Both the position numbers and the translations under genes were made by a program. The notes under the pieces were generated by a model that made no database searches, was not told the DNA's origin, and was given only the letters and a program-made list of their open reading frames with translations. 64,000 nucleotides of DNA from Vicugna vicugna (Eukaryota). Positions 1 through 52,480 of the stretch are shown piece by piece. The stretch spans positions 175,852-239,851 of the forward strand of contig MU057822.1 of the NCBI GenBank assembly GCA_013265495.1. Direction: 5' to 3'. Each line of letters starts with the position of its first letter. Within the stretch, counting starts at the first letter, position 1.

Positions 1-1585
1 GTTGGGGGGGGGTATGATCTGTTCCATCAGCCCTAGGACACTAACACAAACAGCCACGTCCATTTCTCATCCAGATTCTGTGAAGGAGCTGAGTTAGAGG
101 AGGAAGGTGAGCCGAGAAAGGGGAGGTGACTCGCCCAGGAACACACAGCCAGTTAAGGCCTGAAGTGGGATGGAGTCCTGTTTTTTCTCCACTTTTTCAA
201 GCTGCTGTGGGACTTCTAGGACTCAGTCTTTGCCTCCAGGGAGATAAGAATCTAACTGTAGAGCCAAGACAAATATAGGTATCCTTTGATGCATTCATTC
301 ATTCACTCGCTGGAGGCTTCCTGAGCACCCACTGTGTGCCAGCTGGCGGGAGAGATGTTCAAGTCCATTAACAGTACCAGGCAGTCTCCAGGGGCAACAG
401 GAAACAGAGCTGAAGAGCACCAGCTTTGAAGTCTGAATCCTGGCTCTGCTACTCGTTAGCTGTGTGACCTTGGACAAGTTATTTACCCACTCTGATCTTC
501 CATCTCCTCATTTGAAGGACAGGAATACTAGGGTTTATTATCATAAAACCTCAGACGGTTTGTCACATAAGATGCTTAGCTCAGGGACCAAACTAAAGTT
601 ACAGCTTAAGAAGCAACAATGAGAAAAGGGAAGGCAGCCATGGGCAGAGGGCCCAGCTTGGGCAAAGGCAGACAAGGGAAAGGGGCAGAGGACATTCTGG
701 AACTTACGCAAAGTTCTCTCTGGGCATCAGGGAGGGAGGGAGAGGCAAGAGAAGAGGCTAGGGAGAGGGGGTAGTGTCCCTGAGGCCTCAGGGCAGAACA
801 CAGAGCCCTGAGGAACTCGGAGGAGCACATCGAGGCAGGATCAGGGAGGAGGAGGGGTCTGTAAGGAGTCTGAAACGCATCAGACAGAGGAGGAAACTGG
901 GCTAGAGGGCTTTAAAGAGGAGGCGGGAGCAAGTAAGAGGACTGAGATGTTCGCTCTCCATCAGGGGGTCATGAGGCCCTGGAGAACGGGGTCAGGTGGT
1001 GGAACAGGAGCACAGCAGGGTGAGGGGGACAGGGAGTGGGCGGGCAGTCCCAGGGCTGAGTGCCTGCCCTCCATGTGGCTTCTGCTCTCCCCCCAGCCCA
1101 CTCTGCCAGCAGCTTTCCCAGGGCTGTCAGTGCCTTAAAAGAGGCAGAGAACACACGAACGCCTGTGAAATCCCTAAACCCGGTTAAGTGATGAATCATC
1201 CCAGTGCCTCAGTCTGCCCTCTGTAAAATGGGATGACCCACACTACGGGTCCCTCCAAAGGAAGGTTGCTAAGAATCCCAACGTCTCACAGGCCCCACAG
1301 AAGCCTCACTCACCCCAAGTGCCTTCTGGATCCCCAGTGTAGGCCAAGAGTTGGAAGACAGGGACTGGGGCCCAGAGAGGACAAGGGAGCTGCCTGTGGC
1401 CATTCAGTGCAGCACAGCTCAGCCCGAGCTAGAACCAGGCCAGCCACCTGCCAGAGGAGCCCCAAGCCCTGGTGTCTTCACAGAGCTCTGTAAGCCCACA
1501 CAAACTGAGTCTGGGGGCTCAGAACTTCCCGAGAACTTCCCCACCAAGAGCCCCCCACCCAGCCTGGGTGCCAGAGGCCCCTCAC

Positions 1586-1738
1586 CTGTCCAAGCTGTTG
1601 CACGGCCCCAGAAAGCAGGGAAACTGCAGCCCGTGCACCATACGGGCCTCGAATAAAAACTTGGGGGCCCAGAAGCCCAGGGCTCCAGTCACAAAGGCCA
1701 CGGCTGTCAGTCCAAAGTTCGAACACACAAAACTCCAA
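1586..1738 (-). pseudogene. SPNS3: SPNS3 exon 7 (153 nt, frame intact)
   Basis: ttgcag/TTGGAG...GGACAG/gtgagg; encodes (N)WSFVCSNFGLTAVAFVTGALGFWAPKFLFEARMVHGLQFPCFLGPCNSLD. Confidence 0.92.
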
Positions 1739-2557
1739 CTGCAAGAGAAAGTGCTCTGGCTGGAGCTGGCAGAGGGCTGGGGCTGGGGCTGGGGGGGTCC
1801 TGTCTGCTTCTGCTCGCTCCCCTCCCCTCTCTCCTGGGTACTCGGTCACCCTGGCACTCGGGTGGCTCCAGGCTCCACATCCTCCCCGACACTCATTAAG
1901 AAGCCCTCCTCCCTCCTCTCTGCAGGAGCAACTCTCCCCAGCCTGAAAGGCTCAAATCCAACATAATATTGTCCATCCAGCAAGATGTCCCTGTTGCCTC
2001 ACTTTCCTCTAAGTACCCTCCACTCGGCTCATGGCTCTGTAACCAAGAGAGTGGGGGTCCTCTCCATGCCCCACATTTTGGTAAATCATGAGACCTGGGC
2101 ATGCAAGTGACTCCTGCCTGCCTCCCCAACCATGCCTAGAATAGAGAGGGATGCACTCCCATGAGGCTTGGAGAGGTAAGTGATTCACCCCGGCATCTTC
2201 CCAGCCACCCTGAGAAGCTGGCAAGGCTAGAGAATTATGTCCATTGAATCAATGAGGGAAGTGAGGTTCCAAGTCTCAGGTCACTCAGGGATAAGGCAGA
2301 GGCAGAGCCAAGGTTGGAGCTCACGCCGCCTTCCTCCCTCCCTCCCTCCCAGCCCACATTCTGTCACATGGCGAGGTGAAGGGGGCCTCCAAGTCGGGGA
2401 GGGACATCTCAGTTGGTGAATGGGAGCTCAGAGGAGGAAGAAGGTTGTGAATGTTGGGACAGTCAGGGAGGGCTCCCTGGAGGCAGAGGGAGGTCAGTGA
2501 TTCTAGGTCAGACATAGGGGTTTTCAGTGACATGAAGGGAGAAGCAGGGACACTCAC

Positions 2558-2706
2558 TTTCTCCCCAGGTATCTGACATCTTCATACCAGCTGCTCTTTG
2601 GGCCCCCCACGGCCATTACCCCCTGCTTCTCAGCAGCTCCCCGGGGTGGGTTTGGAACCAGCACGATAAGAAGGATCAAGGCCAAGACTTCCAGGGGAGA
2701 CATGAC
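2558..2706 (-). pseudogene. SPNS3: SPNS3 exon 6 (149 nt, frame intact)
   Basis: ccccag/GTCATG...AGAAA/gtgagt; encodes VMSPLEVLALILLIVLVPNPPRGAAEKQGVMAVGGPKSSWYEDVRYLGR. Confidence 0.92.
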
Positions 2707-3455
2707 CTGGGGATAGGAAGGTCCAGGAAGCTCAGGGTCACACACTCCTGCAACCCAGGAGATCCCTTGGGTGGCTGAACTCTGTGGTCCAGGCTCTTGG
2801 GATGCTCTGTGCCCTGGAGGCGGGGGGTGGGCAAGGGGGGAGAGGGACTCATTTCCCCGGGGTTGGTTATGCACAGAGCTTAACATACCACTGCTCCCAA
2901 CCCCTCACTCTGAGTACAGCCTCTCTGGGGAGTGGGGTGCCCTTGGTACTTGACTTAATACCCGTTTGTCCTGTACAGACGCTACTATTGGGAGCAGTGA
3001 GCCTGACATGGTGAAGAGCTAGAGGCCTGACTACCCTGGCCCTGACTGCTGAGGACTTGCTGCTCCAATAACTGTCCCTTTTCCCGGTCCACGCCTCCAC
3101 CTGCCAGGCCAGCCCTGCCCTAGTGTCCTTCCATCCCTGTCTCACAAATCCTCAAGATTCCATAAGGCAGCCTTTACTCCCCCCCACTCTACAGATAGGC
3201 AAAGTGAGGCCCCGAAGAGGGAGGGGACTAGCCTGAGGTCACACAGCTAGCCAACTGAGCAGCTGGGATTTGATCCCAGGGGCACGACTTCCAGAGGCCA
3301 CGTTCCATACGAGGCCCCCAGTGTCTGAAGCTGCTGACATCTGAGCACCCCCCACGGCGCCAGGTACTGTGCCAAGGGGCTAAGGCCACTAGAGGCTGGA
3401 AAGTCCCTGCTGGCCCAGTGGGAAAACAGAGGGAAGAAAAGGAAACTGGACTCAC

Positions 3456-3523
3456 TCGGAGGGCCCAACGCCAGTTCCCGGTCAGCTCCGTCACAAGCCG
3501 ACCCCAGCACATAGCCCAGACCA
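3456..3523 (-). pseudogene. SPNS3: SPNS3 exon 5 (68 nt; +1 frameshift)
   Basis: ctgcag/TGGTCTG...CTCCGA/gtgagt; SGLGYVLGSA and VTELTGNWRWALR lie in different frames, joined by GCT-t-GTG. Confidence 0.92.
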
Positions 3524-4240
3524 CTGCAGCAGAGGGGCGGGGAAACAGCAGTGAGGGGAAGGAGGCAGGCCCGGGGCCCCAAGACCAACCTAAGCGAGGG
3601 TGCGCCCACCCTAGGGAGCCAGCTCTCTGCAGCTCATGGCCATTTCACTGGGAAGAGTGAGCCATGTGAGACCCAGATGGCCACTGCCCTTGGTCAAGTC
3701 ACTGGTGACCTCTGGCTCCAGGCCCAGCCCCAGCACCACTGTGCACTGTCTCCCAATATGAGGACCATGCACCTCCCCAAGGCTCAGCCCTGCCCCAGTG
3801 AGGCGATTTCAGGAAACCTGAGTCAGAGCTCAGGGTCCTGACTGCAAATCCCATTCTGCCCCACCCCACTGTGGGGTACACGCCCGACCCCAACACACTT
3901 CCCTGCCTCCCCTCCCAGAGCCGGCCCCTCCCTGAGCAGGCCGTACGGCCAGGCTGCACTATCTCACCCCTTCCTGGGGTGGACTAGCAGGTAGGGAGCA
4001 TCCTCATTATGTATCTCTAACTCCCACCATAGCCCATCGGTCAATGTTACTGGCGCCATTTTTACAGATGAGGAAACTGAGGCTCAGAGAGCTAAAGGGA
4101 CACAGGGAGGAAGGGGTAGAGTTGAGATTCCAAACCTAGCCCTCCTGCTCTGACGTCTCCTCCACCCAGCCCAGCCCCTGTTCTGACTCCTCTGGGCCTC
4201 AGTGTACCACCCAGGGAAGTGGATCCAGAGTAATACCAAC

Positions 4241-4392
4241 CTTCCAACAGCAATAAAGATATAGAAGATGGTCAGCACTTGGGTCCGCTGGTCCCTCACG
4301 AAGAGGTCACACAGGATGGTGGGCGCAATGATGGAGGAGCTGGCCGTGCCGATGCCCACCAGTCCCCGGGACAGGAAGAAGAGCCAGGAGTA
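4241..4392 (-). pseudogene. SPNS3: SPNS3 exon 4 (152 nt, frame intact)
   Basis: gcccag/TACTCC...GGAAG/gttggt; encodes [50 protein letters not shown]. Confidence 0.92.
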
Positions 4393-4863
4393 CTGGGCAG
4401 ATGGGGACAATACCACAGTGAGTTCCAGAAATCACACCAGGAGGATTGTTCTCAGAGGGACAGAGGGCATCTGGTAGCACGAGCCCCAGGAGAGGAGGAG
4501 GTGTCAGGGCTCCAGACACCTCACCATCCTCCCAGTCCAGGTTCCCCAAATCACACGGGTGCCCCCTGCTGGAGCCCACAGCTGCTACCTGCCCCCCACC
4601 GCCCAAAGGAGCTCTCTTCCTGGGCATCGTCTTGGCTAACCAGGCCAGTTCCCGCAGACGGGAGCGATTACCCTCACCTCTAGCCCCAGCACAGCCAGGC
4701 AGAAATAAAGCCACGGTGCCAGAGAGGAAGGCCTCTGTTAAGAAAGTCCAACGGGCTTCTCTCAGCCCTGGAATGCCCCGCCTGGCTCAGCAGGGGCTGG
4801 ATCAGGGAGGAAGCAGTTTGGGGAGGGTCCCCCAGGGGCTTGGGCAGGGGTGAGAGCACCTAC

Positions 4864-5002
4864 CTGGGGGGGGGGATGAAGGAACTGGAGAGGCCTGCTC
4901 CTGACCAGAACAGGATACCGAAGCTCAGCACGGCCTTGCGGTTGTGCCGGTCGCCCAGGTAGCCAAACAGGGGCGCAGACAGCGTCAGGCAGCTGATGAA
5001 GA
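4864..5002 (-). pseudogene. SPNS3: SPNS3 exon 3 (139 nt; +2 frameshift in a C10 run)
   Basis: ctccag/TCTTCATC...CCCCAG/gtaggt; encodes [43 protein letters not shown], including MFS motif A. Ends in phase 2, while exon 4 needs phase 0. Confidence 0.92.
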
Positions 5003-6436
5003 CTGGAGGAGACATGCAAGGGACAGCCTGCAGCCCCCCAATAAAGGCGGGGAGCAGATGGGCCCAGCAGGCTCAGAGAAGGGAACTGGCTCAGATACTT
5101 AAGCTTGGCAGTGAGTGGAGGCCAGAAGGAAGAAAAATAAGGTGAATCCCCAATCTCCATCATTGCCCAGTCAGGAGGACTGGGAGGGAAGTGTACGGGC
5201 TGGGCCTAGGCTCAAAACCCAGGCTGCTCGCTCACTGTGCAACCTTGAGTTACTAATTCCACCTCTCTGAGCATCAGCCCAACACTGGAGAAGTCAACAT
5301 CCCCCTATGAGGCTCTGCAAAGGTGAGACTACAGTGACACAGAACATCATCCCCCAAGGCATGGAGCTGCTAGTGCGGGGTCTTTAGGAGAATTTCAGCC
5401 CGCTGTGAGCAGGATGTTGGGACTAGTCTGATTTTGCTCTCAAGCCTCTGCTGGAGGTTGGGGGGGGGGTGGAAGGCAAGGGGAGGGGGAGGCTGCAGGT
5501 GCCACCTTTGAGCAGACAAGTACAGTTTAGAATGAGCGCAGTGTTTATAAACCTGTGGTCCCTGGAGGCTGGAAAAGAGTTGGTTTTCCTAAAGCTGGTA
5601 AAATATTCCCCTGATGCTGCTGTTGTACTTATACATGTTTTTTTTTTTTAAGTAAAGGCTTACGAATTGGCCTCCGGACTAATGAGTGCGTTTGCTATTC
5701 TGCGAAGACGAAGAAACTGCCACGTTTTTTCTTGACTGTACCACGTGGATAATTACCCTCACTGCTTCGGTTCAAATAAAAAACGCCTCCACCCTCCTCG
5801 GTGTGTCCTTGGCCTCCGAGAGCCGGCAGGTGGCGAGGGGCAGTCTGACCCCTCCTCCACCCGGTCGCACCAACCGAGGCCCTTAGGCTGTGAAGGCCCC
5901 GCCCAGCTCCAGGGTCTCCATTCATTGAACACTGATGATTGACACTTCCTGAGCCCAATGAGTGTTCAGACTCTTCCCAGCTCATCCCACTCCGCCCTGA
6001 CCCGCTCCGTTATTGGGTTGAGCCCCGCGCAATTGCGGAAATTAGGCCAGTTTTGACCTACAAAAACGACAACTTAATATGGCTTGGCCTAATACTCCAC
6101 AGAGAATGGTCTTTGGTGTCAACGGCATTTAAAAATTTAACAGCTACTGCCAAAACAGGCCTCCAAAAAGGCTGTATCAATTTACACTTGCGTAGAAATG
6201 GAGTACATATATGCCAGCACCCTTGCTGAAATTTGATAGGATCAATCGATTTGTGTTCATTTAATGGTTGAATAACAAATAGCGTCTCGCTGACGTTTTG
6301 ATCTGCATTGTCCTTATTCACAGTAAGGCTGAGCAGCAGTTCCTGGGTTCACATCTGCCCATTTTTCAATTGGGCTGTTTGTTAATAATTTCTCCCAGTC
6401 CTTTATATTTGTTTTAAGGATTTAAAATGCAAATTC

Positions 6437-6581
6437 GGAGGTGGGAGGGTATAGCTCAGTGACAGAGCGCATGCTCAGCATGCACAAGACCCTAGGTTCA
6501 ATCCCCAGTACCTCCTTTTAAAAAATATTATAAATAAATAAACCAAATTACCTCCCCCCCAAAAAAAGTTTTAAAATAAAA
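6437..6581 (+). mobile_element. tRNA-Ala-derived SINE (Vic-1-like)
   Basis: A/B-box head, A-rich tail; TSD taaaa(t/c)gcaaattc at 6423-6436 and 6582-6595. Confidence 0.9.
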
Positions 6582-7104
6582 TAAAACGCAAATTCTGCGA
6601 CTAAATACCTAGGCTCACATCCTGACCCCACCACTTCCTAGCTGTGTGACCTTGGGCAAATTCCTTAACTCTCCCGTTCCCCTTTTATCAACTGCACAGT
6701 AAGATATTAATAGTCCTAAAATAAAGCATCTAAAAGGCAGTGATACGCTTTATGTAAATACTCAACAAAGTTACCTGTTACTATTGCTAATTGCTTTTAT
6801 AATTTCAATCACCATCATACAGAAGAATTTAGCTTTGAGGTAGTCAAATTTATCAGTCTTCTTCAGGGGAGGTTATTTCGTGTCTTGTTAATGCATATCT
6901 ACTTTACCTAAAGATTATAAAATATTTCCCCAAATCTTCTAATGCTTTTATGAGACTTGGGGCAAGAATCCTTTATAGGTTATAAACACCTTAAACCTGC
7001 AGATCTCCTGGGGTGGAGAAGCCTACACCCAGGGGGAAGGCAGGCACCCCTTCACTCCCAGCATCTCCAGATTCACATTTCTGTCACAAGGTGGGAGTAA
7101 TTAA

Positions 7105-7355
7105 GGAGCACAGGGCTAAGGGAAGGACGCTATAGGCAGCTACCTGGATTTGAATCCCAACTCTGTGACTTACTAGCTGTATGACCTTCAGCAAGCCCCA
7201 CAGCCTCTCTGTGCCTCAGGTACGTCATCCGTAAAATGGGCATAATAATAATCCCTGGCTCGAGGGCTTGTTGTGAAGATTAAATGAGTTAATGTTACAA
7301 AGCACTTAGAATAGTGGCACATGGTCAGGGTCACATCAGTGTTTGTTAAATACTG
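7105..7355. mobile_element. MIR SINE (one of several; others near 410-600, 3170-3290, 4050-4130, 6600-6780, 14120-14325)
   Basis: MIR core tactagctgtatgaccttcagcaag...ctctgtgcctcag...gtaaaatgggcataataat...ttgtgaagattaaatgag. Confidence 0.8.
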
Positions 7356-8627
7356 TAAATCAATTAACGGAGTCTAGTAGCTTCTCGGTCCCGTGGTGGT
7401 GGCGGGGGAGGGTTGTCTGACCACTGCTTCCACCCACCTTCCACCCCACTCTTATAGCTTGATGAGCCCTCTGAGTCATCAGTTTCCTCTATTCTGCAGC
7501 CCTGCGGACAGACAGCAGAGTGGGTCTCAGGGCCTTTGCACAGTGACCCAGAAAGGTGAAAAGACTGACCTGAGGTCACCCAGGACAAGCCTGGTCATCT
7601 GGCCTCCAAGCCCACTGTCCTTTCCACACGCCTTTTTGGGCTGCCTCTGCAGAGAAGACCCTTCCCTTCATCCAGTCTCAAACACACACACTCACACACA
7701 CACCTCCCCACCACACACTCATAAACACATCCTTGCATTCACATGCTCGCTCACTCTCATACACACAAACTTCTCCCTCCCTGCAGCTCACTTATCAGGG
7801 GCCTTGTAGTAGTAATCCTGCTCACCACGGTAAGAAGCAGGGCATGGAAATGTTGACTCAGCTACCATTATCTGTTCAGTCTAGAAGGTTGTGGGTATTG
7901 AGCCGAGAGACTCTCTTTGGCTACAAATATGACTGGGAGAGCAGCACCAGCTGCCGGCCTCAGCTCGGAGATAGGAGTAATTGGAAAAAAACCATGATCT
8001 ATCATGATCTACTAACTCTTTTGCTCGGTGCCTATTAAAGAAGTTTGTAGAACTGTGTACCCCTTCACACATTTTTGGCTGACATCTAAAATGTTTTTAT
8101 CGTCAGTTTAAATAGGGGCAAAGGATGTGATTTCTAGCATTCTTGTATTTTTTTTTAACTATATTGTCATCCAAATCCTTAGGGCTGCAGATTGAGTTCA
8201 TTCAGTTTATGGGAAATGTCCATGCTAGAGGCTAAGGGGCAAAGCCAGTCCTCATTTGCCAAATCAATCAAACAAATCAGACTGGTTGTCTGTAAGAGAG
8301 ATATTAAACTGTTGGCTCCATTTTTTTTATTGAAATAAATGTGTTGATACCCATCCCTGAGACAACCATCTCATTTATGAATTCTCAGTTATAGATTAAT
8401 AGTAGACTGTCACACTCCAGCGGGACAGCTAGATAAGGCTTGGCGCCTCACCATCCTGGGTTTGTGTGGCCTGGAGGAAACATCTCCAGTCAGTGTCTAC
8501 CGATGCTCTCTCTGTCCTGCTCCCGGGGCCTTGTCAGCAGAGGCCTAGCCGCCATGATGGGCCCCTCTGTCCAGCACCCGGGAGATTTTTACATCCCAGG
8601 GCAGTGTACCATATTAAAACTCAGAAA

Positions 8628-8760
8628 GGAGGGAGGGTACAGCTCAGTGGTAGAGCACGTGCTTAGCAAGCACGAGGTTCTGGGTTCAATCTCCAGTACC
8701 TCCACTATAATAAATAAGTAAATAAATAAACCTAATTACCTCCCCCCCCCGCAAACAAAC
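8628..8760 (+). mobile_element. tRNA-Ala-derived SINE (Vic-1-like)
   Basis: Same head and tail; TSD aaaactcagaaa at 8616-8627 and 8761-8772. Confidence 0.9.
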
Positions 8761-8828
8761 AAAACTCAGAAAAGGGGAGAGATGTTTGGCACTTTTTCCT
8801 GCCAAAAGTGGTGGGCAGGGGATTATTA

Positions 8829-8984
8829 TTTTTCTGTCTGGGTTTTTTGTTGTTGTTGTTGTTGTTTTTGGTAGGGGAAGGTAATTAGGTATATTTCTTT
8901 ATTTTTAGAGGAGGTACTGGGGATTGAACCCAGGACCTCATGCATGCTAAGCATGCTCTCTACCATTTGAGCTGTAGCTTCCTC
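8829..8984 (-). mobile_element. tRNA-Ala-derived SINE (Vic-1-like)
   Basis: Reverse complement of the same consensus, with a (GTT)n tail. Confidence 0.88.
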
Positions 8985-9758
8985 AAGTGGACAGGTGATT
9001 ATTAAAGGGGAGGTGGGAAAGAAGAACCAGAGGCTTGTTCTCTGACAGATATATTTTAAGAAAATAGAAGATCTGGACATGGATTCTCTCAAAACTGGAG
9101 CGAGCATACGTGAATCCTGTGTTGTGACAGTGCGTGCACACATGTGGGCACGTGCGTGTGCATGTGTGTGTCCCCCATCCGGGCACCCACAGGGGAAAGG
9201 TTAGTGCCTCATGCCCCAACCACCACCCACCTTGAAGGGGAAGGTCTGATTGCTCCCCACTGCTGGACAGTAGGCCCCAGTGGGCCCAGACCTCATCTGA
9301 GCCCGTGCAGAGTGCACGTGTCTCTGTCCGTCTCCTGGTCATCAGGTTTTTCAGGTCCGTGAGAAGAAAGCACACACGAGGATTTGTCAACCCCCAGCTA
9401 GTCTCCAGGACAAAGCCCAAACAAACATGAAGAATGAGTGACAAGTCCACAGTCAGGATCTGAAGCTCCGGAGACTTCTCCGGCCCCTCCGCGTCTCCCC
9501 TTGCCGCAGCACTTACCCTCAAACAGTGAGAGGCTGTTCAGGCACCAGATCTCAATCTGTACTACCTCCTTCTCCAACCCAGACTGTCCCTCCCACCCAG
9601 ACACCATGCATCCTCAGTGCCCCCTCCTCTGTGCTGAGGGACTCAGGGAGGCTCAGCCTGGCCCCCTTTTCCCAGCAGCTGGAGCTAGACACTGCAGAAA
9701 AACCCCATCCAGCCCAAGCCCAGGGCCCCGGCTCCAGGGCAGGGGCCTCCCTCCTTAC

Positions 9759-9824
9759 CTGTATGAAGCAAACCAGCAAGGTTCTCACTGAGCTGGAAAT
9801 ACTTCTGTACATCCAGCAGTATTC
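9759..9824 (-). pseudogene. SPNS3: SPNS3 exon 2 (66 nt, frame intact)
   Basis: ccacag/GAATACTG...CATACAG/gtaagg; encodes (G)ILLDVQKYFQLSENLAGLLHT, similar to recalled human GVLLDIQEVFQISDNHAGLLQT. Confidence 0.92.
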
Positions 9825-9974
9825 CTGTGGACAGACAGACAGTGCTCGGGAAGTGGGAATAGCCTGCCAGGCCTCTAACAGCAGCTGCCCCCGCGTTTGG
9901 AACAGGCCCACAGCTGACCAGCACAGCACAGGTGTGACCCCTGGGCCCACCTGTTCTCCCCATTCCCGCCCCCT

Positions 9975-10455
9975 ACATGCATGCGCACAACCACACACAT
10001 GCGCAGACCCAGCTACAGGAGCCGGCACGCAGAGACGTGCGCACATCAAACACACCTGGAAACACACATCCATGCACAAGCATGCATGCCCAGACACAGA
10101 CACACAGTCATGCAGATCCACATAGGTACCTACAAACAGGCATGCCCAGAACCACACACTCACAGAGGCAGAGATACTGATACACACACAGGAGCCTGCA
10201 CGCACCGACATGTAAACCCAGTCTCAACACCCAGACACACATACAGCTAGATGTACACATAGAGACGCCCCACATCAGAGCGACTGGCAACCATCACTTA
10301 GATTACACGGTAAACGGAAGTCCCTGGGATCATGCAACACAGTGGCCCTGCTGGTGTCCAAACTCCAGACAGCCACAGACCTACGTACACACACATGAGC
10401 GTGTACACATAGTCATACGTGCTCTGGCCTGCATGTGTACACACACAAGCACGCT
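9975..10455. repeat. Degenerate CA-rich low-complexity tract in SPNS3 intron 1
   Basis: Dense cacaca/catgca motifs. Confidence 0.7.
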
Positions 10456-12984
10456 TTTCCAGAGGCATGAGCACCCAGACATGAGAGTGCCCGTGAGTGC
10501 CTCAGAGACAGGTCCCACTTAGTCCCATCTTAGCCCCACCTCCCTGAGGGTGGCAGGCTCTGGCTCTGTGCTAGGAGTCTCTGAAGCTAGGCCATGGGGT
10601 GCTGGAGTGGGGGGCGCTCAGCCTAATGCAGAGAGAGGAAGCGGGCCACTGGGCACCAGGCTCTATTGCCTGAAATCCCCTCAGCCCCTTGGTGGTATTT
10701 CAAAGTTAGTCAGGATGCGAGGCACCTGCTTCTCTGAGCTGTGAGGCTCTGGCCCTGTCATTACTCTGATTGAGTTATAGGATGGTTGAGGGCCGGGTCC
10801 TGAGCTGGACACAGAGTTGCTTCCCTAAGAGGAAACTATCACTGTCCCCATTATACAGATGTAGAAACAAAGGTCTGGCCACCCACGGTGGTGCAGCTGG
10901 AACTGGGGGAGCCAGGACTAGCATCCTAGGCAGAGGCAGCCCGCCCTCCACCCAGCGTCACAAGTGGGGCCCTGCAGAAACACCCCACAGCAGGAATAAA
11001 GGCCTACAATCCACGCCCCAGAGACCTGCCAGTCAGTGAAGAAAAACCAAAGAATCAGCGAATCAAAGTAAAAGTAAAAGATTTTTGTTCTGACATTCAC
11101 TTTGGACCCAATTGCCACAGAACCCAAATGCCCACTTGTACGTCTTCCCTTTCAGTATTTTTCATTACACAGATGAGACATAGTCATTGGAAAGAAACAG
11201 AAACACAGATAAGCAAGTTAAGTGGCTAAGTAAAAATGATCTCTAATTGCACTCACGTTGGGGAACGGGACTCTGCCCCTAGTTTTGGCTCCTCCCAGCC
11301 CGGTGCTGCTCTGTGGGCAGCCTGGGGCCAAGTGTGGGTCTGGCCTCCCAAAGACCTGCTTCCCACAAGAGAATTCTCCTTGCATGAGAATCACCTGCCC
11401 CCAGCAGTCCCCAGGCACTCCTGCCCCCAGGAGTCCCAGGGCCTCCCTCAACCCAATCACCTGGGCCGCTTCTCACACAGCCAGAGGAAGGGCCTCAGGC
11501 CGGCAGGACTCAGGGGCTGCGAGTCCAGCCAGGGCCTCTCAAGGCGGGTGACAGCGAGAGCAGGGCCCCCAGCCTGCGCAGCTGTGAGAGCACCACACCC
11601 CTGGTTGCCCCACTCTTGCCCTCTCCCCTCCTCTTCACGCCCCCTGCCTCCCCCGAGTCTGGGACCCTCAGCTTCAGCCTGATCCACCGCAGTAGCCTCT
11701 GATACACCTCCCTGTCTCCTTTAGCCTCCGATCTCCCCACTTGAAAAATGTTCCACGGCTCCCCATTTCCTCAGGAGAAACAGCAAGCTCCCAGCCTGGC
11801 ACCCAAGAAGACTATGATCAGGCCCCAAACCCCCTTTTAGAATAATTTCCTGCTTTCTTCCCCTCCCTCCAGCCCAGATCAGAGGTGCACTTTCGCCCCA
11901 TGTGCCTTGGCTCAGGCTGACCCCTCTCTCTGAATGCCCTGGCCTCACCCCATTCCTTCCCTGCCTTACTGGTTTTCTCAGCCTTCAAGACCCAAACCAT
12001 ATGCCCCTCCTCTGTGAATTCTGCCGGAAGCCTCAGTTTTTCATCCTGGGACTGCCCAGCTGATGCCCTCCCAGCTGTCCTGGATTAGAGTTACTCATGC
12101 ATGCGTTCTGTGTTGCCCTGAGCTTGTCCAAGACAGACACCCACCGGGTCTGGTGCTGTCTGTCTGCAACCTCTGAGTCCCAGTCAATCCATAGCTGCGA
12201 GCTGCTAACTGATGAATCAATATTCTGGCCTCAGGGATGCCCAGCTGCCACAGGAGCCCCCTCTGAGCTCCACGGCAGGTCTGTGCCTCCATCATCACGC
12301 ATCTCTCTGCCTTATGGGAGTCTTGTTAATGCGTTCCTCCCTCTGCCCCTTGAGATGGTCGTTCCTGAGTTCAGGAGCTACGAGGCTGACTTCCCCTCCC
12401 CTGGGTCCCCAAGGCCCACCAGAGGGTCCCTCCCACAGTGCTCAGTCCATCTTGAGTGAATCCGTGATCAAGAGAGAAGAGGTTGAATCTTGAATGAATG
12501 AATGAATGAGTGAATGAGTCAGTCAATGAGTGAGTGACATGAAGACAGTGCAAGCTGAGCCCTGGGGCCTAAAGGAAGGCGGAGTGTGCAAGGTTTGCAC
12601 ACAGCCTGCTGCCCCAGGAACACCCAGCCACCTAGTTCTTGCTTAGGAGCAGGGTCAGGCTCCTCTGTCCGCCATGAGCTCACCCCGACGTTGCACCCAG
12701 AACCACCAGAACTTTGCCCGATGCCCAGTCCTCCCTGCTGTCCTCACCCACCCATCCTCTGTCATGCAGCCACGCCTGTGTGCATGCTCTTAATTTGGGG
12801 CTGGATTGGGAACTCAGTTGGCCCTCCCCCCATTCAGGCAGAGCTTAAACCACCCCTTGGGGTGAGAACAGCATGGATGTGCTCCCCAAGAAGAAAGTTT
12901 TTTGGACAGAAGGCCGCTGTGGATACAGGACAGCCAGCAGGTAGATGGGCAGGTACCACCCAGGATGCCCGTCCCCTTCCTCAC

Positions 12985-13157
12985 CTGCGATACTGATGTG
13001 TCTTTGCCCCGGCTGGGGAGGCTAGGGGCATGCCCATGAAGTGCGGGGAGCCTGAGCTGGAGGGACCTCAGGGCCAGTCCCCAGGGCTGGGCTCAGGTCA
13101 GTGTCCCTCTCCGACCACTCTCGCCCCCTGGAGCCTGCCTCGCAGCTTCATGGGCAT
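12985..13157 (-). pseudogene. SPNS3: SPNS3 exon 1, disrupted by inversion-duplication
   Basis: Minus strand keeps ATGCCCATGAAG (13157-13146) and the exon end TATCGCAG/gtgagg (12992-12985, donor GT at 12984-12983). The intervening N-terminal codons MPMKCGEPELEGPQGQSPGLGSGQCPSPTTLAPWSLP read on the plus strand from 13030. Confidence 0.85.
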
Positions 13158-13194
13158 GCTCCCAGCCTCCCCAGCCAGGGCAAAGACACATCAG
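12993..13194. repeat. Inverted repeat: 49-bp arms (12993-13041 and 13146-13194) with a 104-bp spacer
   Basis: Direct comparison gives 46/49 identity between the left arm and the reverse complement of the right arm. Confidence 0.95.
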
Positions 13195-15091
13195 CTCTGC
13201 ACTGAGTCACCTCCAGTGGGGTCCCAGACTCCCAACCTCAAAGCAGCTTCCCTAACCACTGAGTATATTATCGCAGGTCCCTGTTGAGCCCCCTGCAGCC
13301 TCGCCGGTGAGATTTCACCATCTCCAGCCTCTGAGGCCTGCGGGGGGGAGGAGAGCTCCTGGCCGCGCCACCCAGAGTAAATGGCCCTTTTGACCTAGGC
13401 TGCAGCTGCCATGGCCGCAGTGAGGAAAAGATGCTTTGCACGACAGGAAGTGAGATGAGTCTCCCAGAGTCCTGTGCACTGTGAGAGGGTCTGTGAAGGA
13501 GGGACTCGAAGCCGGGTCAGATCAGGAAGGCTGGATGTGGGCCAGGAGAGTGCGCTGAGCTGGACCGTCAGAGGAGGCCAACACCTGCTCCTAACATCCC
13601 ACCTAGAGAAACAAAGACAGTGAGTGGCTGCCGAATGGGAAGGCAGCCTGTGGGCAAAACTCATTCATGGATGCAAAATCTGGGGGGAGGTTTTTGATGA
13701 GGGGCATGATATTGGCATGGTCTTCAAGTGTCTCCTTATGGATTGTTTATTAGTAGCAGGTGGGAGGAGGGTAACAATGCAGGAGACGAATTAGGCAACA
13801 TTTTGACGGAAGGACTAAAATGGCATTACCAGATCTTTAAGGGTTGGGGAAGGAAGTGTTTGGCCTTGGTAACCCTGTCTCGATGTGGTTCAAGAATTCT
13901 CCTCTGGTTCACCGTCACGGCCACGTATTTGTTCATTCCTGGAGCAGCCACTGTGCACATCCACAGGCTCACTAACTGCATGGATGGTCTTGGGGAAACC
14001 CAGGGAAGTTCAAAATCAGGGCCTCCAGCACGAGCACATGGCTGGCAGGCCGGTGCTGGCTTTGAGTCCTCTCCGCAGGACCGCCTGAGTGTCCTCACAG
14101 TCTGGCATCACGGCCAAGACCCTACTCCAGAGCTGGACTCACCACTCACCGACCCTCTGATCTTAGGCAAATCAACCTCTCTGTGCCTCCATTTCCTCAT
14201 CTATAAAATGGGGCTGATAATAGTACGTAACTCACAGCGTTGTTGTGGTTTAAATGAGTTTGAAAAGAAGTACCTAGACCTTCACCTGGTAAGGAAGAAG
14301 TGCTATGTCACTGTTTGTTAAATAAAATAGGGTTTTCCCCGGCACACGTAGATGAGGCTTTGGTCTCAGCCCTGCCCTCAGGGCTGAGGAGTGACCAGCA
14401 GAGCTATGTCCTCAAGTAGGAGTGAGAACCCAAGCACACAAGTGCGCACCTGCATTGCAACTAGTCAACACCAGGACAGACCTGCCACCATCTGGACGCT
14501 ACTGCCCCAGGCAAGGCTGGTCACAGTCATCCCTTTCTAGAGTCCAGCCCTCACTGTGCCAGCCCAGAAGGCCACCCTGTCTTGGCTTTCAGAGCAAAGG
14601 AGCAGCTGAAGGAGTCAGAATCCCCAGCATTAGTCAAATCCAGGAGGCTGGGTGTCAGCCAGGAGCACAGCATCGGAATACGATCAACTGCCCTGGACTC
14701 CTGGGCTTCCAAAGTCGGGATCCCTCCAGGGACCCAGGATTTGACCCCCAAAAGGGTTCTGGAAGAAGAGACTTTGTCCCAGAGGCATTTTAGGAACAAA
14801 TTGGAAGAACATCATGTTCCAGGAGCAGGAGGCCAGCAGGGGGCAACACAGTGTCCTAGATGACCAAGAAAGAATCCTGGGTTCCCACACCATGAGGCGC
14901 AAACAGGATGCCTTCCCACGCTTAGCCTCAGCTTCCCTATTTGGTCATTGGTGGTCATGGTGGCGGAGGGACTGGATGGCCCTCAGCTTCACAGTTGGTG
15001 TGTATGTCTCTCACTTGAAGGGTCAGGAAGTAGAAGGTTTCAGGCTTGGTTAACTCAGTAGCACCATGATGTCATCAAAGACACCAGTGTT

Positions 15092-15232
15092 AGAGGGGAA
15101 GGTATAGCCCAAGTGGCAGAGCGCATGCTTAGCATGCATGAGGTCCTGGGTTCAATCCCCAGTACCTCCTCTAAAAATAAATAAATGAATAAACCTAACT
15201 ACCTTCCTCCTCAAAAAAAAAAAAAAAAAAAA
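15092..15232 (+). mobile_element. tRNA-Ala-derived SINE (Vic-1-like)
   Basis: Consensus head, poly-A tail, TSD acca(g/a)tgtt. Confidence 0.9.
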
Positions 15233-15279
15233 ACCAATGTTTTCCATTTTTCCTCCCGGAAATCTTTATAGAGTTCACC

Positions 15280-15825
15280 TTTGAGTACATATCCATTGCT
15301 GCATAACAAACTTCCCCCAGTACGTGTGGCTTTAAGCAACAAGAGTTTTTTATTATCCCTCATGGCTCCGGTGGGTCAGCAATTTGGAAGCAGCCTATTG
15401 GCCATTCTGGCTCGGTCCCTCAGGTGGGTGCAGCGAGATGTCCACTGAGACAACACTCATCCGAAGGCTTGACTGGGGCTGGAGGGCCCCTTTCCTAGGT
15501 GGCTCACCCACGTGGCTGGCACACTGGTGCTGGCTGTTTGGTCCTCTCTGCAGGACTGCCTGAGTGTCCTCACAGTAGGGCAGGTGTCCTTGAGTGTCCT
15601 TACAGTGTGGTGGCTCGGTCCACCAGATGGAGCAATCCAATAGGGGCCAAGGCAGAGACGCCAATACCTTTCACAACCTAGACTTCTAGGTCTGTATTCT
15701 GCTGTGTTCTAGTCGGTCACACAGGCCAGTCCTGATTCACTGTGGGAGAGGACCACACGAAGGCATGAACACCAGGAGGCACAGCTCACTGAAGAGCCTC
15801 TTGGAGGCTGGGGACCACAGCCTTC
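15280..15825. mobile_element. MaLR LTR (MLT1-like)
   Basis: Recalled MLT1 motifs: ttgctgcataacaaac..., tgagtgtcctcaca, caggccagtcctgattcactgtgggag...catgaacaccaggagg. Confidence 0.65.
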
Positions 15826-15864
15826 ACCCACTTGTCATCTCACATACAAGAAGGAAAGAATGTG

Positions 15865-16327
15865 CAGCAACATGGATGGACCTAGAGATCATCTTTCCAA
15901 GTGAAGTAAGTCAGACACAGATAAATCTCATATGATATCACTTATATGTGGAATCTTAAAAAATGACAGAAATGAACTTATTTACAAAACAAAAGTAGAG
16001 TCACACAGAAAACAAACATAGTTACCAAAGGGGAGGGAGGGATAAATTAGGAGTTTGGGATTAACAGATACACACTACTATATATAAAATAAACAACAAG
16101 GTCCTACTGTTTAGCCCCGGGGAACTATATTCAACATCTTGTAACAACCTATAATAGAAAAGAATCTGAAAAAATAGATATATATTCTATTATTTTATAT
16201 ATATATATACACACACACAGACACACACACACACACACACACATACACATATACAACTGAAGCACTTTGTTGTACACCTGAAACTAACACAACATGCAAA
16301 CCAACTACACTTCAATTTAAAAAAAAA
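15865..16327 (+). mobile_element. LINE-1 3' end with internal (TA)n(CA)n microsatellite
   Basis: gcagcaacatggatggacctagag... through ctacacttcaatttaaaa poly-A. Confidence 0.85.
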
Positions 16328-50779: not shown

Positions 50780-52480
50780 TCAATCCGGAGGCGGTGTCTT
50801 GACCCTCCGTGACCTCTTTGTCATGGCGTCTGCGGGGCGTCTGCCGCCGAGGCCTTGGCACTGGGCCGGGAGATGACCTTCCCAAGATGGCGGCGACAGG
50901 CGCAACTCCGCGTAGGGGGCAGGGTTCCGCCTCCGGAGGCGGGGCGGGGAGGCAGAGGGGTCGGACTAGCAGGCTGGCCGCTTCCGAAGTAGACAGCCCA
51001 GCGCGCCTGCGCGGAGCGGCCCTGAGCGCAGTGAGGCAGTGGCGGGGGAAGGCACCGGTGGGGCCGACGGGCGGGTTGAAGGAGGGAAGCGGGCGAGCGA
51101 GGTCCCAGTGCGCGCCGCGGCCGCACGGGTACCCTCCCCTTCCGGGCGTGAGGCGCTGTGAGGAAAGCTGAAGCGAGCGGACTCGCACCGGCAGCGAGGC
51201 GCCGCCACAGCAGCCTCAGCCCGGCCTCCCTCGGCTTCGGCGCTCCCGTCGTGGGGGCCCGGGTTCCTCAGCACACCCAGCTCCAGCAGCCTCAGAGTCT
51301 GTCCCCCGTCCTTCGAAAGCCCCGGCGCCAGCCTGGGCCCTTGGCGGGGAGGATGACGGAGCTGCAGTCGGCACTGCTACTGCGAAGACAGCTGGCAGGT
51401 GAGCGAGCGGGCGGCGGGGCGCCGGGCCGGGCCGCGAGCGCGCCAGCAGCTGCCTGCTCCTCCTCCCTTGCTCCCGGCGCTCCTGGGCCGGCCGCCGGAC
51501 AGCCGAGGGAGCGCGGGCCTGCGAGGGTGGGGAGCCCGGGCGCTCGTCCCGGCCGGGCCCAGCACTTCTTCCTCGGCTTTCTGAGAGTGTTGGGGGCGGG
51601 GACGCGCCCCAGCCTCGGCCCCACGACTGGGCCTGGGCCCCGGGGGAAGGAGGAGGGGTTGCCCCTCCCCCACTTCTCGGTGGGACGTTGCGGGGGAGGG
51701 GCTGTGGGTCCCCAGCCCGGGCCGACCCTCCCAGGAGGGGCGGGTCCAGGCTCAGGTGCGGCCGAGACCGCCGGACCCGGGGGGCAGGAAGGACCGTCCG
51801 GGCCCGGCCGGCTGCGAGTTCCCGGCTCGGGTGTCGCAGCCGCGGGCGGGCAGCGGGGGCGAGGGTGGGCGAGAGGAACTGGCCCCCGGGCGGATAGGTG
51901 AGGCGCGCCAAACTTCTGCTGGGGCAGCGCCGGGTCCGCGGAGTTGTGGCGGACAACAAAAGCGCCGGCCTCCGCGGCCTGCTCGCGGGCGCGCGGGGGT
52001 CTGAGAACCCGGCAGGGCGCGGGACGCCGCCTCGCCTGCCTCCGCCTGTCACTGGCTCCGGCTGCGCCGCCCGGCTGGGGGAGGGTAGGAGCGGGCCGAG
52101 CCGAGAGCCGCTCGCTGGCCGGCTCGGGGCTTTGTGCTCCGAGCGATTCCGGCTCCTGCGCAGGCCTGCAGGTTCCCGGGGCTGCGGCCCGCGGGCTCAG
52201 GCTTGGGGCGGCGCCCGGGTCAGCCTCCCCAGAGGTGCCTGCGTCCCCCCTCCCCCATTGTCCCGGCCTCCGGCCGTTTGCGGCTTCCAGGTTGACTTTT
52301 TAGGGGGTTGGCTCCGACTCTGCTAGGACTGTGTGAACGGAGCATGCGCACTGGAGACGTACGTGTGCGAAGTGTAAGGGGGAGGCGGGTTGGTGGCTTT
52401 ACAATGCCGCCCCACGTGCTGCCAGATTTAAAGAGAAATGAACCAGCGGTTACCCCTGCTGCCCTACGCCCGGCGGGTGT
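50780..52480 (+). promoter_or_regulatory. UBE2G1: UBE2G1 CpG-island promoter and 5' region
   Basis: Very GC- and CpG-rich. YY1-type AAGATGGCGGC at 50884-50894, GC box GGGGCGGGG at 50941, NRF1-like GCGCCTGCGC at 51003-51012, ETS-type CTTCCG at 50981 and about 51139. No TATA box seen. Confidence 0.9.
51353..51398 (+). CDS. UBE2G1: Ubiquitin-conjugating enzyme E2 G1, coding part of exon 1 (46 nt, phase-1 intron follows)
   Basis: aggATGACGGAG...CTGGCAG/gtgagc encodes MTELQSALLLRRQLA, the recalled UBE2G1 N-terminus, inside a CpG island. No further exon was recognised before the window end. Confidence 0.95.

Follow-up and report, generated by a model that had tools for sequence, protein, structure and literature searches.

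Of the three spinster transporters of vertebrates, SPNS3 is to our knowledge the most poorly understood; does its gene still encode a transporter in the South American camelids? The question is raised by a stretch of 64,000 nucleotides from an assembly of Vicugna vicugna (C885:175852-239851, here called the window; the genome-wide searches below cover 2.03 Gb in 12,405 contigs), in which the SPNS3 gene lies on the minus strand with its canonical exon 1 destroyed. The gene is probably inactivated: it is a single orthologue, and the canonical spinster transporter of twelve helices appears to be no longer encoded. The inactivation is also probably lineage-specific, belonging to Lamini and not to all camelids. 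The initial annotation had proposed a unitary loss of SPNS3 caused by three independent lesions, which is right in substance, since a single broken syntenic orthologue is present, and which is narrowed here to Lamini and to one secure lesion. This kind of event is ordinary, mammals having many lineage-specific unitary gene inactivations; the unusual point is the clean open frame behind the destroyed first exon.

The first exon of SPNS3

Exons are numbered in the twelve-exon scheme of the initial annotation, which is backed by the splice sites. What is left of exon 1 can be recognised in the window as the following pieces:

13146 to 13194, minus strand: arm A, the 5' untranslated region (UTR) and original start (ATG 13157-13155, then CCC ATG AAG), in gene orientation
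13042 to 13145, plus strand: inverted piece of exon 1, 104 nt, on the wrong strand, encoding residues 5-38 of the canonical N-terminus
12993 to 13041, plus strand: arm A', an inverted duplicate of arm A, sitting where the part that encodes transmembrane helix 1 (TM1) is deleted
12983 to 12992, minus strand: last 8 nt of exon 1 (TATCGCAG) and the GT donor, the old 3' end, in a phase that fits exon 2

In gene orientation, arm A is followed first by the next 104 coding bases and then by arm A itself, both as reverse complements, and finally by TATCGCAG and GTGAGG; the net change is the presence of an inverted (arm A + 104 nt) in place of (104 nt + ~68 nt). One inverted repeat was found, with arms at 12993-13041 and 13146-13194 (49 nt, 94% complementary, 104 nt between them), which mismatch at 3 of 49 positions, one of these being a CpG to TpG change. 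With the SPNS3 protein of Camelus bactrianus (P0024, 509 aa) as query, residues 1-38 matched 13030-13143 on the plus strand (89% identity), the wrong strand for SPNS3, and residues 64-85 matched exon 2 (9760-9825, minus strand); residues 39-63 had no match in the window, and none in a Smith-Waterman scan of 5100-16000. A minus-strand frame at ~12900-12960 that weakly resembles the TM1 peptide fell outside the 12 best Smith-Waterman windows and was dropped as chance. The deleted segment aligns with a conserved 'AVLCYINLLNYM' stretch at the start of the SPNS1 and SPNS2 structures, which we take to be helix 1. The frame opened by the native ATG ends in a stop after 19 codons, and the continuous frame for twelve helices, with helix 1 in exon 1, is missing from the window gene, in which the codons for Camelus residues 39-61 are absent. 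The proposal that exon 1 is rearranged is thus confirmed in the sequence by the inverted 104-nt piece, the 49-nt arms and the loss of ~68 nt.

The exon 1 remnant looks like the product of a replication template switch (fold-back). Because the arms differ at 3 of 49 positions, it is not a trivial or fresh palindromic assembly artefact, and the rearrangement is probably some millions of years old, three differences being a poor basis for a date. A complex event inverted the first 104 coding bases, duplicated in inverted orientation a 49-nt segment of 5' UTR and start, and deleted the ~68 nt for transmembrane helix 1, so that the native start codon now leads into the early stop. Any RNA transcribed from the old promoter would fold into a 49-bp hairpin at its 5' end; the hairpin predicted for exon 1 (window 12980-13200, minus strand) has a 49-bp stem, a 104-nt loop and a free energy (dG) of -155 kcal/mol (z -9.75), and none of 200 shuffled sequences folds as well. 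Constraint on the protein would have been lost on the Lamini stem, and the shortened proteins predicted by NCBI on the basis of alternative first exons, all without TM1, would not be expected to transport.

The canonical N-terminus is likewise absent from the gene models of the alpaca. Nine distinct NCBI models of Vicugna pacos were compared (P0006-P0009 and P0096-P0100, from at least two annotation releases: XP_031530758.1; XP_072796461.1; XP_072814292-300), of which XP_072796461.1, named 'SPNS3', is placed on a 63-Mb chromosome record and XP_072814292-300, named 'SPNS3-like', on a record of 149,181 bp; the canonical N-terminus is found in 0/9. Residues 1-90 of the Camelus protein, used as query, retrieved two camel-type proteins at 100% and a next best match at 75%, and no alpaca or llama protein matching the Camelus N-terminus was found among the best 120 of 327 matches. 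The translations of exons 4 and 6-12 of this assembly are 100% identical to the NCBI alpaca models.

Rate of protein change and the open frame

The protein sequence encoded behind exon 1 has changed at an exceptional rate. In an alignment of alpaca, camel and 14 other mammals (419 comparable sites of exons 3-12), 45 derived replacements can be assigned unambiguously to alpaca, versus 1 to Camelus, with 19 more ambiguous, the camel mostly carrying the majority state. Conserved sites are not avoided, because 24 of the 45 alpaca replacements fall at sites invariant in 14 outgroups, versus 236 invariant sites among all 419. Counted by leaving out one species at a time, private states number 47 in alpaca, 24 of them at sites otherwise invariant, versus 1-19 (0-5 at invariant sites) in fourteen other species; a hedgehog model with an out-of-frame C-terminus has 51. 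The maximum-likelihood (ML) tree of 17 rows, from which this hedgehog model was omitted on account of its C-terminus, gives 0.24 changes per site on the alpaca stem, 0.008 on the Camelus branch and 0.059 on the median tip. On these alignments the alpaca SPNS3 protein has evolved ~30-45 times faster than that of Camelus and blind to conservation, with replacement even of conserved W, G, P and R residues within helices. Relaxed selection is suggested at protein level by this strong excess of change irrespective of conservation, as expressed in amino-acid counts.

The 56 majority-polarised replacements, placed on the codons of this genome, comprise 49 of a single base and 7 of two or more, and the spectrum of the single steps is mutation-like: 21 strong-to-weak (S>W), 12 weak-to-strong (W>S), 7 S>S, 2 W>W and 7 ambiguous, with 26 transitions and 16 transversions. 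Biased gene conversion was rejected as the cause, S>W changes outnumbering W>S by 21 to 12, and gene conversion from SPNS1 or SPNS2 was rejected by eye, the derived residues being unlike those of SPNS1 and SPNS2 in the alignments.

Some models of other mammals deserve caution. The C-terminal thirds of the horse (P0025) and hedgehog (P0064) SPNS3 proteins are out of register with other mammals, through either a model frameshift or a real lesion, and the sheep, wild yak and finless porpoise models (P0001, P0002 and P0003; 897-1049 aa) appear to fuse SPNS3 with SPNS2 and are probably read-through annotation artefacts.

Beyond exon 1, the gene consists of these exons:

9759 to 9824, minus strand: exon 2, 66 nt, open, bounded by AG/GT; 64% identical to Camelus (14/22 residues) and included in no NCBI alpaca coding sequence
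4864 to 5002, minus strand: exon 3, 139 nt instead of 137 (+2), with a run of ten C (C10) at 4866-4875 at its 3' end
4241 to 4392, minus strand: exon 4, intact, 100% identical to the NCBI alpaca models
3456 to 3523, minus strand: exon 5, 68 nt instead of 67, with an extra T (gene strand) seen as AA 3495-3496 on the plus strand
2558 to 2706, minus strand: exon 6, intact
1586 to 1738, minus strand: exon 7, intact
C1283:5662-5853: exon 8, outside the window on a separate contig of 9.5 kb
C885:154323 down to 147087: exons 9-12, outside the window

The starting points that NCBI predicts for the alpaca proteins also lie in the window. One is an intronic ATG just before exon 3, and the others are:

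9231 to 9342, minus strand: alternative first coding exon of models P0098 and P0099, with a GT donor, encoding no membrane helix
5695 to 6009, minus strand: open frame with the alternative first coding exon of models P0096, P0097, P0009, P0007 and P0006

Several observations weigh against inactivation. The 424 codons of exons 3-12 contain no stop codon in this assembly and equal the NCBI models save for two doubtful indels; every splice site from the acceptor of exon 2 through the acceptor of exon 12 is AG or GT, so that canonical splice sites are kept throughout exons 2-12. An open frame and canonical splicing of this kind are hard to square with an old pseudogene in free decay. In the NCBI annotation the alpaca locus is protein-coding and has many isoforms and alternative first exons, which suggests transcription, and the exon 1 rearrangement has been seen directly in one assembly only. 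Indel-to-substitution ratios are 0.04-0.14, and the South American camelids split from the camels 17-25 My ago. Simulated without selection, the observed amino-acid divergence of 15% corresponds to ~0.085 substitutions per site, and the frame stays free of stops in 13-14% of 400 such neutral simulations (331 codons, the set including one intronic codon from the end of exon 10, with negligible effect); from ~44 essential splice bases and the indel ratios given above, several more lesions would be expected under neutrality. That neutral decay along an entire branch should leave so clean a frame looks unlikely (roughly 1e-3 or less by our own estimate); either the gene was therefore inactivated recently or its frame is still under some selection. 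The divergence implied by the simulation is, moreover, 2-3 times that given over the interval since the camel split by a rate of 1.4e-9 per site per year, which follows from 7e-9 mutations per generation and 5-year generations in the available excerpts of one article (PMC7331169), where the Lama-Vicugna split is placed at 2-3 Mya. This excess leaves room for an omega above 1.

Inactivation may be reconciled with these observations if residue constraint was lost long before the frame became dispensable and the exon 1 event came fairly recently, a sequence that the wide error on 3/49 permits. Other possible explanations are a high local mutation rate (the sequence is CpG-rich, with 59% GC) or selection that still keeps the frame open.

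The last of these would make SPNS3 a gene still in use, an N-terminally remodelled and fast-evolving derivative that is made from the alternative first exons (9231-9342 or within 5695-6009), has no TM1, is kept open by selection and has perhaps changed its role. Such a derivative would account for the open exons 3-12, the canonical splice sites of exons 2-12, the small share of stop-free neutral simulations, a divergence beyond the genome-wide neutral expectation and the existence of nine distinct NCBI coding models, none of which is flagged as low quality. It is nevertheless unlikely, given that invariant sites are replaced as often as variable ones (24/45 vs 236/419), which is the signature of an unconstrained protein, that conserved W, G, P and R residues of helices are among those replaced, and that the new N-termini predicted by the NCBI models contain no hydrophobic helix, while a protein of the major facilitator superfamily (MFS) fold that lacks helix 1 would not be expected to show normal insertion or transport. 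Candidate frameshift alleles also exist, and the chromosome-level model differs from this assembly by 3 residues (L/V, T/M, T/M), that is, by 3 replacements in 424 codons between two alpaca haplotypes. It is distinctly doubtful, too, that an eleven-helix body is being kept open and spliced behind new first exons, changing at or above the neutral rate, and is turning into a non-transporting membrane protein or a regulator.

Exons 3 and 5, assembly and copy number

Besides exon 1, the initial annotation had counted a +2 in exon 3 and a +1 in exon 5 as lesions, and an old unitary pseudogene with three independent, real and fixed lesions would follow if both were genuine. Both indels are present in the sequence of the window. 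Exon 3 ends in ATC, nine more C and AG|GTAGGT, which makes up the C10 run. By codon arithmetic on the window flanks, eight of the nine NCBI alpaca models, which read ...SSSFIPPQ|YSW, would need a run of eight C (C8), and the remaining one (P0008, XP_072814293.1), which has another frame in exon 3 (...FLHPPPQ|YSW) and joins exon 4 only via C10, would need ten; C10 may therefore exist in a second assembly. Both C8 and C10 seem to be present in alpaca data, and the models of one gene thus seem to require C-runs of differing length. When the 133-aa frame that spans the C-run was compared with the protein collection, no alpaca genomic open reading frame was retrieved, only 2 matches from unrelated species. 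The C10 site is a homopolymer, prone to germ-line slippage and to errors of length in assembly, and the +2 in it is doubtful as a lesion.

The +1 in exon 5, where GCTTGTG is read and the frame needs GCTGTG, is missing from all eight NCBI alpaca models that include exon 5. It is also missing from a second copy of this part of the gene in the same assembly:

1238 to 4250 of the window: stretch with exons 5-7 that the assembly contains twice, with its second copy at C885:166700-169711, just left of a gap of 6,140 N (C885:169712-175851)

The two copies are 99.9% alike over 3,013 bp; the second departs from the window by two mismatches within its initial 63 bp and by one gap, the exon 5 T. Because the second copy lacks it, the extra T is a heterozygous variant or an error and no fixed lesion. 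The left edge of the extra copy (C885:166700) is a sharp junction of unique sequences, and this copy could be a mis-join, the result of uncollapsed haplotypes with a deletion allele without exon 8, or a very recent duplication. The contig that carries exon 8 (C1283) ends in 705 bp that equal window positions 1-705. In the reference, too, the SPNS3 locus seems to be either difficult to assemble or variable in structure.

Sampled words of window 3300-13299 were present at 0.90-0.95 in 15 runs of DNA type (8 studies, four organism labels), a figure that is silent on individual lesions; RNA runs X16-X20 contained 0.05-0.09 of the sampled words of the same interval, which has no bearing on expression.

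C10 and the extra T would thus appear to be young variants segregating in a neutral gene, or assembly errors, and not old fixed lesions. Three fixed lesions are accordingly improbable: the +1 is missing from a copy that otherwise differs by two edge mismatches as well as from every NCBI model with exon 5, most models need C8, and the +2 lies in a 10-base homopolymer near a badly assembled region (the 6,140-N gap, the redundant copy and exon 8 on C1283). Of the three lesions originally counted, the one in exon 1 is solid, that in exon 3 is doubtful and that in exon 5, present in the window, is probably not fixed.

The same difficulties of assembly could suggest that exon 1 is intact in the animal, the rearrangement being an artefact of the one assembly in which it is directly seen, and that SPNS3 is an ordinary, merely fast-evolving gene. 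This is very improbable, as the arms are 94% and not 100% alike, the NCBI alpaca models, which come from other assemblies, have no canonical N-terminus though Camelus proteins were available as guides, exon 2 has diverged by 36% from Camelus, and the extreme asymmetry of rates fits a loss of function.

A search with the translation of exon 4 (window 4240-4392, minus strand) retrieved 91 proteins, with SPNS3-named proteins in dozens of mammals at 68-86% identity and four Vicugna pacos 'spinster homolog 3-like' models at the top (100%); the exon also aligns with the solved SPNS1 and SPNS2 structures (E 1e-13). For SPNS3-named proteins of many mammals a range of 76-100% is also recorded. The Camelus bactrianus protein matches the window exon by exon at 80-89% identity. 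SPNS3 is a better match than SPNS1 or SPNS2, whose loci are found separately at 40-59%: SPNS2-like exons (59% alike) lie on the same strand 35-70 kb beyond SPNS3, and SPNS1-like exons are on C1614. The order on C885 is SPNS2-like exons at 106-116 kb (minus), SPNS3 at 147-189 kb (minus) and UBE2G1 exons at 227, 288.6 and 295 kb (plus), which we take to be the human gene order SPNS2 - SPNS3 - UBE2G1.

The head-to-head arrangement with UBE2G1 that the initial annotation described is borne out by an ATG at 51353 (plus strand), which lies 38.2 kb from that of SPNS3 and has a GT donor after it, and by later exons that match UBE2G1. The N-terminal peptide from this ATG resembles UBE2G1, presumably as its first coding exon:

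51353 to 51398, plus strand: coding part of UBE2G1 exon 1, within a CpG island at 50800-51800 (observed-to-expected CpG ratio (CpG o/e) 0.79, GC 0.75)

Two UQ_con exons lie downstream on the same (plus) strand, at C885:288636 and C885:294955-295155, the latter identical to human UBE2G1 (PDB 6d68) in all but two of 64 aligned residues (E 1.6e-38 vs 3e-20 for UBE2G2). A Pfam scan of window 51.3-64 kb found a UQ_con exon in 0/122 plus-strand frames; the next recognisable exon of UBE2G1 is ~61 kb past the first, its intron 1 extending out of the window. The 5' region of SPNS3 (12500-14000), unlike the UBE2G1 promoter, has no CpG island (GC 0.51-0.62, CpG o/e 0.22-0.35). Intron 1 of SPNS3 contains, just upstream of exon 2 (~9900-10500), a long CA/TG-rich stretch of low complexity, which translates into runs of H, T, C, V and M.

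Because introns are kept and there is one SPNS3 locus genome-wide, on C885, the gene is the orthologue and not a retrocopy or a decayed duplicate. A retrocopy is ruled out by the introns with AG/GT ends that separate exons 2-12, as the initial annotation had maintained on the strength of the kept introns and of the position head to head with UBE2G1. The intact duplicate whose discovery would have made this gene a decayed copy was sought in the whole assembly, both by a six-frame comparison with the Camelus protein P0024 and with the regions of exons 1 and 3 as DNA queries, and no second copy of SPNS3 was found. Isoform numbering indicates apparently two 'SPNS3-like' genes on the 149,181-bp record, near-identical and all without exon 1. 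A decayed duplicate beside an intact paralogue elsewhere in the genome, for which these and the 'SPNS3' of the 63-Mb record might speak, is extremely improbable, all NCBI models falling in one 90% cluster or being near-identical, lacking exon 1 and looking like haplotigs or redundant copies, and this genome having one locus. The host is a New World camelid, either alpaca or a species very close to it, and this locus is its only SPNS3 orthologue.

Comparison with camels and other spinster genes

Unlike the window gene, which has lost the exon 1 that bears TM1 and has accumulated 45-56 derived replacements, SPNS3 of Camelus bactrianus and C. ferus (XP_010968254, 509 aa; EPY90171) still has its exon 1, TM1 included, and is conserved to the degree seen in other mammals (1-3 private changes; ML branch length 0.008). 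The two belong to the same family and are assumed to occupy the same locus; their gapless alignment over exons 3-12 shows 84.7% identity (359/424). A transcript-sized contig of 1,992 nt encodes a camel-type SPNS3 of 507 aa that is intact and conserved like those of C. bactrianus and C. ferus. A loss in camelids at large is contradicted by the models of these two species and by this 507-aa protein. The NCBI Vicugna pacos proteins named 'protein spinster homolog 3' and 'spinster homolog 3-like' represent the same broken gene as that of the window, from which they differ in being annotated as coding, in needing two fewer C in exon 3 (8/9) and in lacking the exon 5 T (8/8).

SPNS2 and SPNS1 are MFS transporters of lysolipids and sphingosine-1-phosphate (S1P) with solved structures (such as PDB 7yub, 8ex4 and 9boi), to which residues 23-478 of Camelus SPNS3 align (E 3.8e-155 to SPNS1, 2.5e-132 to SPNS2). 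The window gene is without the helix-1 segment that is found in all SPNS1 and SPNS2 structures, the likeness of SPNS3 considered here being one of sequence. With the lineage-specific unitary pseudogenes of mammals the window gene shares a single syntenic copy, introns, a disabling lesion and a speed-up in one lineage; it differs from typical ones in being unusually clean in exons 2-12, which contain no stop, no splice loss and no secure frameshift.

No report of SPNS3 loss in camelids was found in the literature searched, and the SPNS3 papers on pseudogenes concern no camelids; orthologue-projection tables may already flag the locus. In the available excerpts of the articles concerned, SPNS3 is linked to prognosis in acute myeloid leukaemia (PMC8806827, PMC7255376) and an SPNS3-S1P-S1PR1 axis is proposed (PMC13634760). 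If SPNS3 is indeed inactivated in Lamini, nature would have provided healthy SPNS3 knockouts in the llama, alpaca, vicuna and guanaco, with the camels as a close intact control, and a comparison of Lamini with camels could reveal the tissues and lipids that depend on SPNS3.

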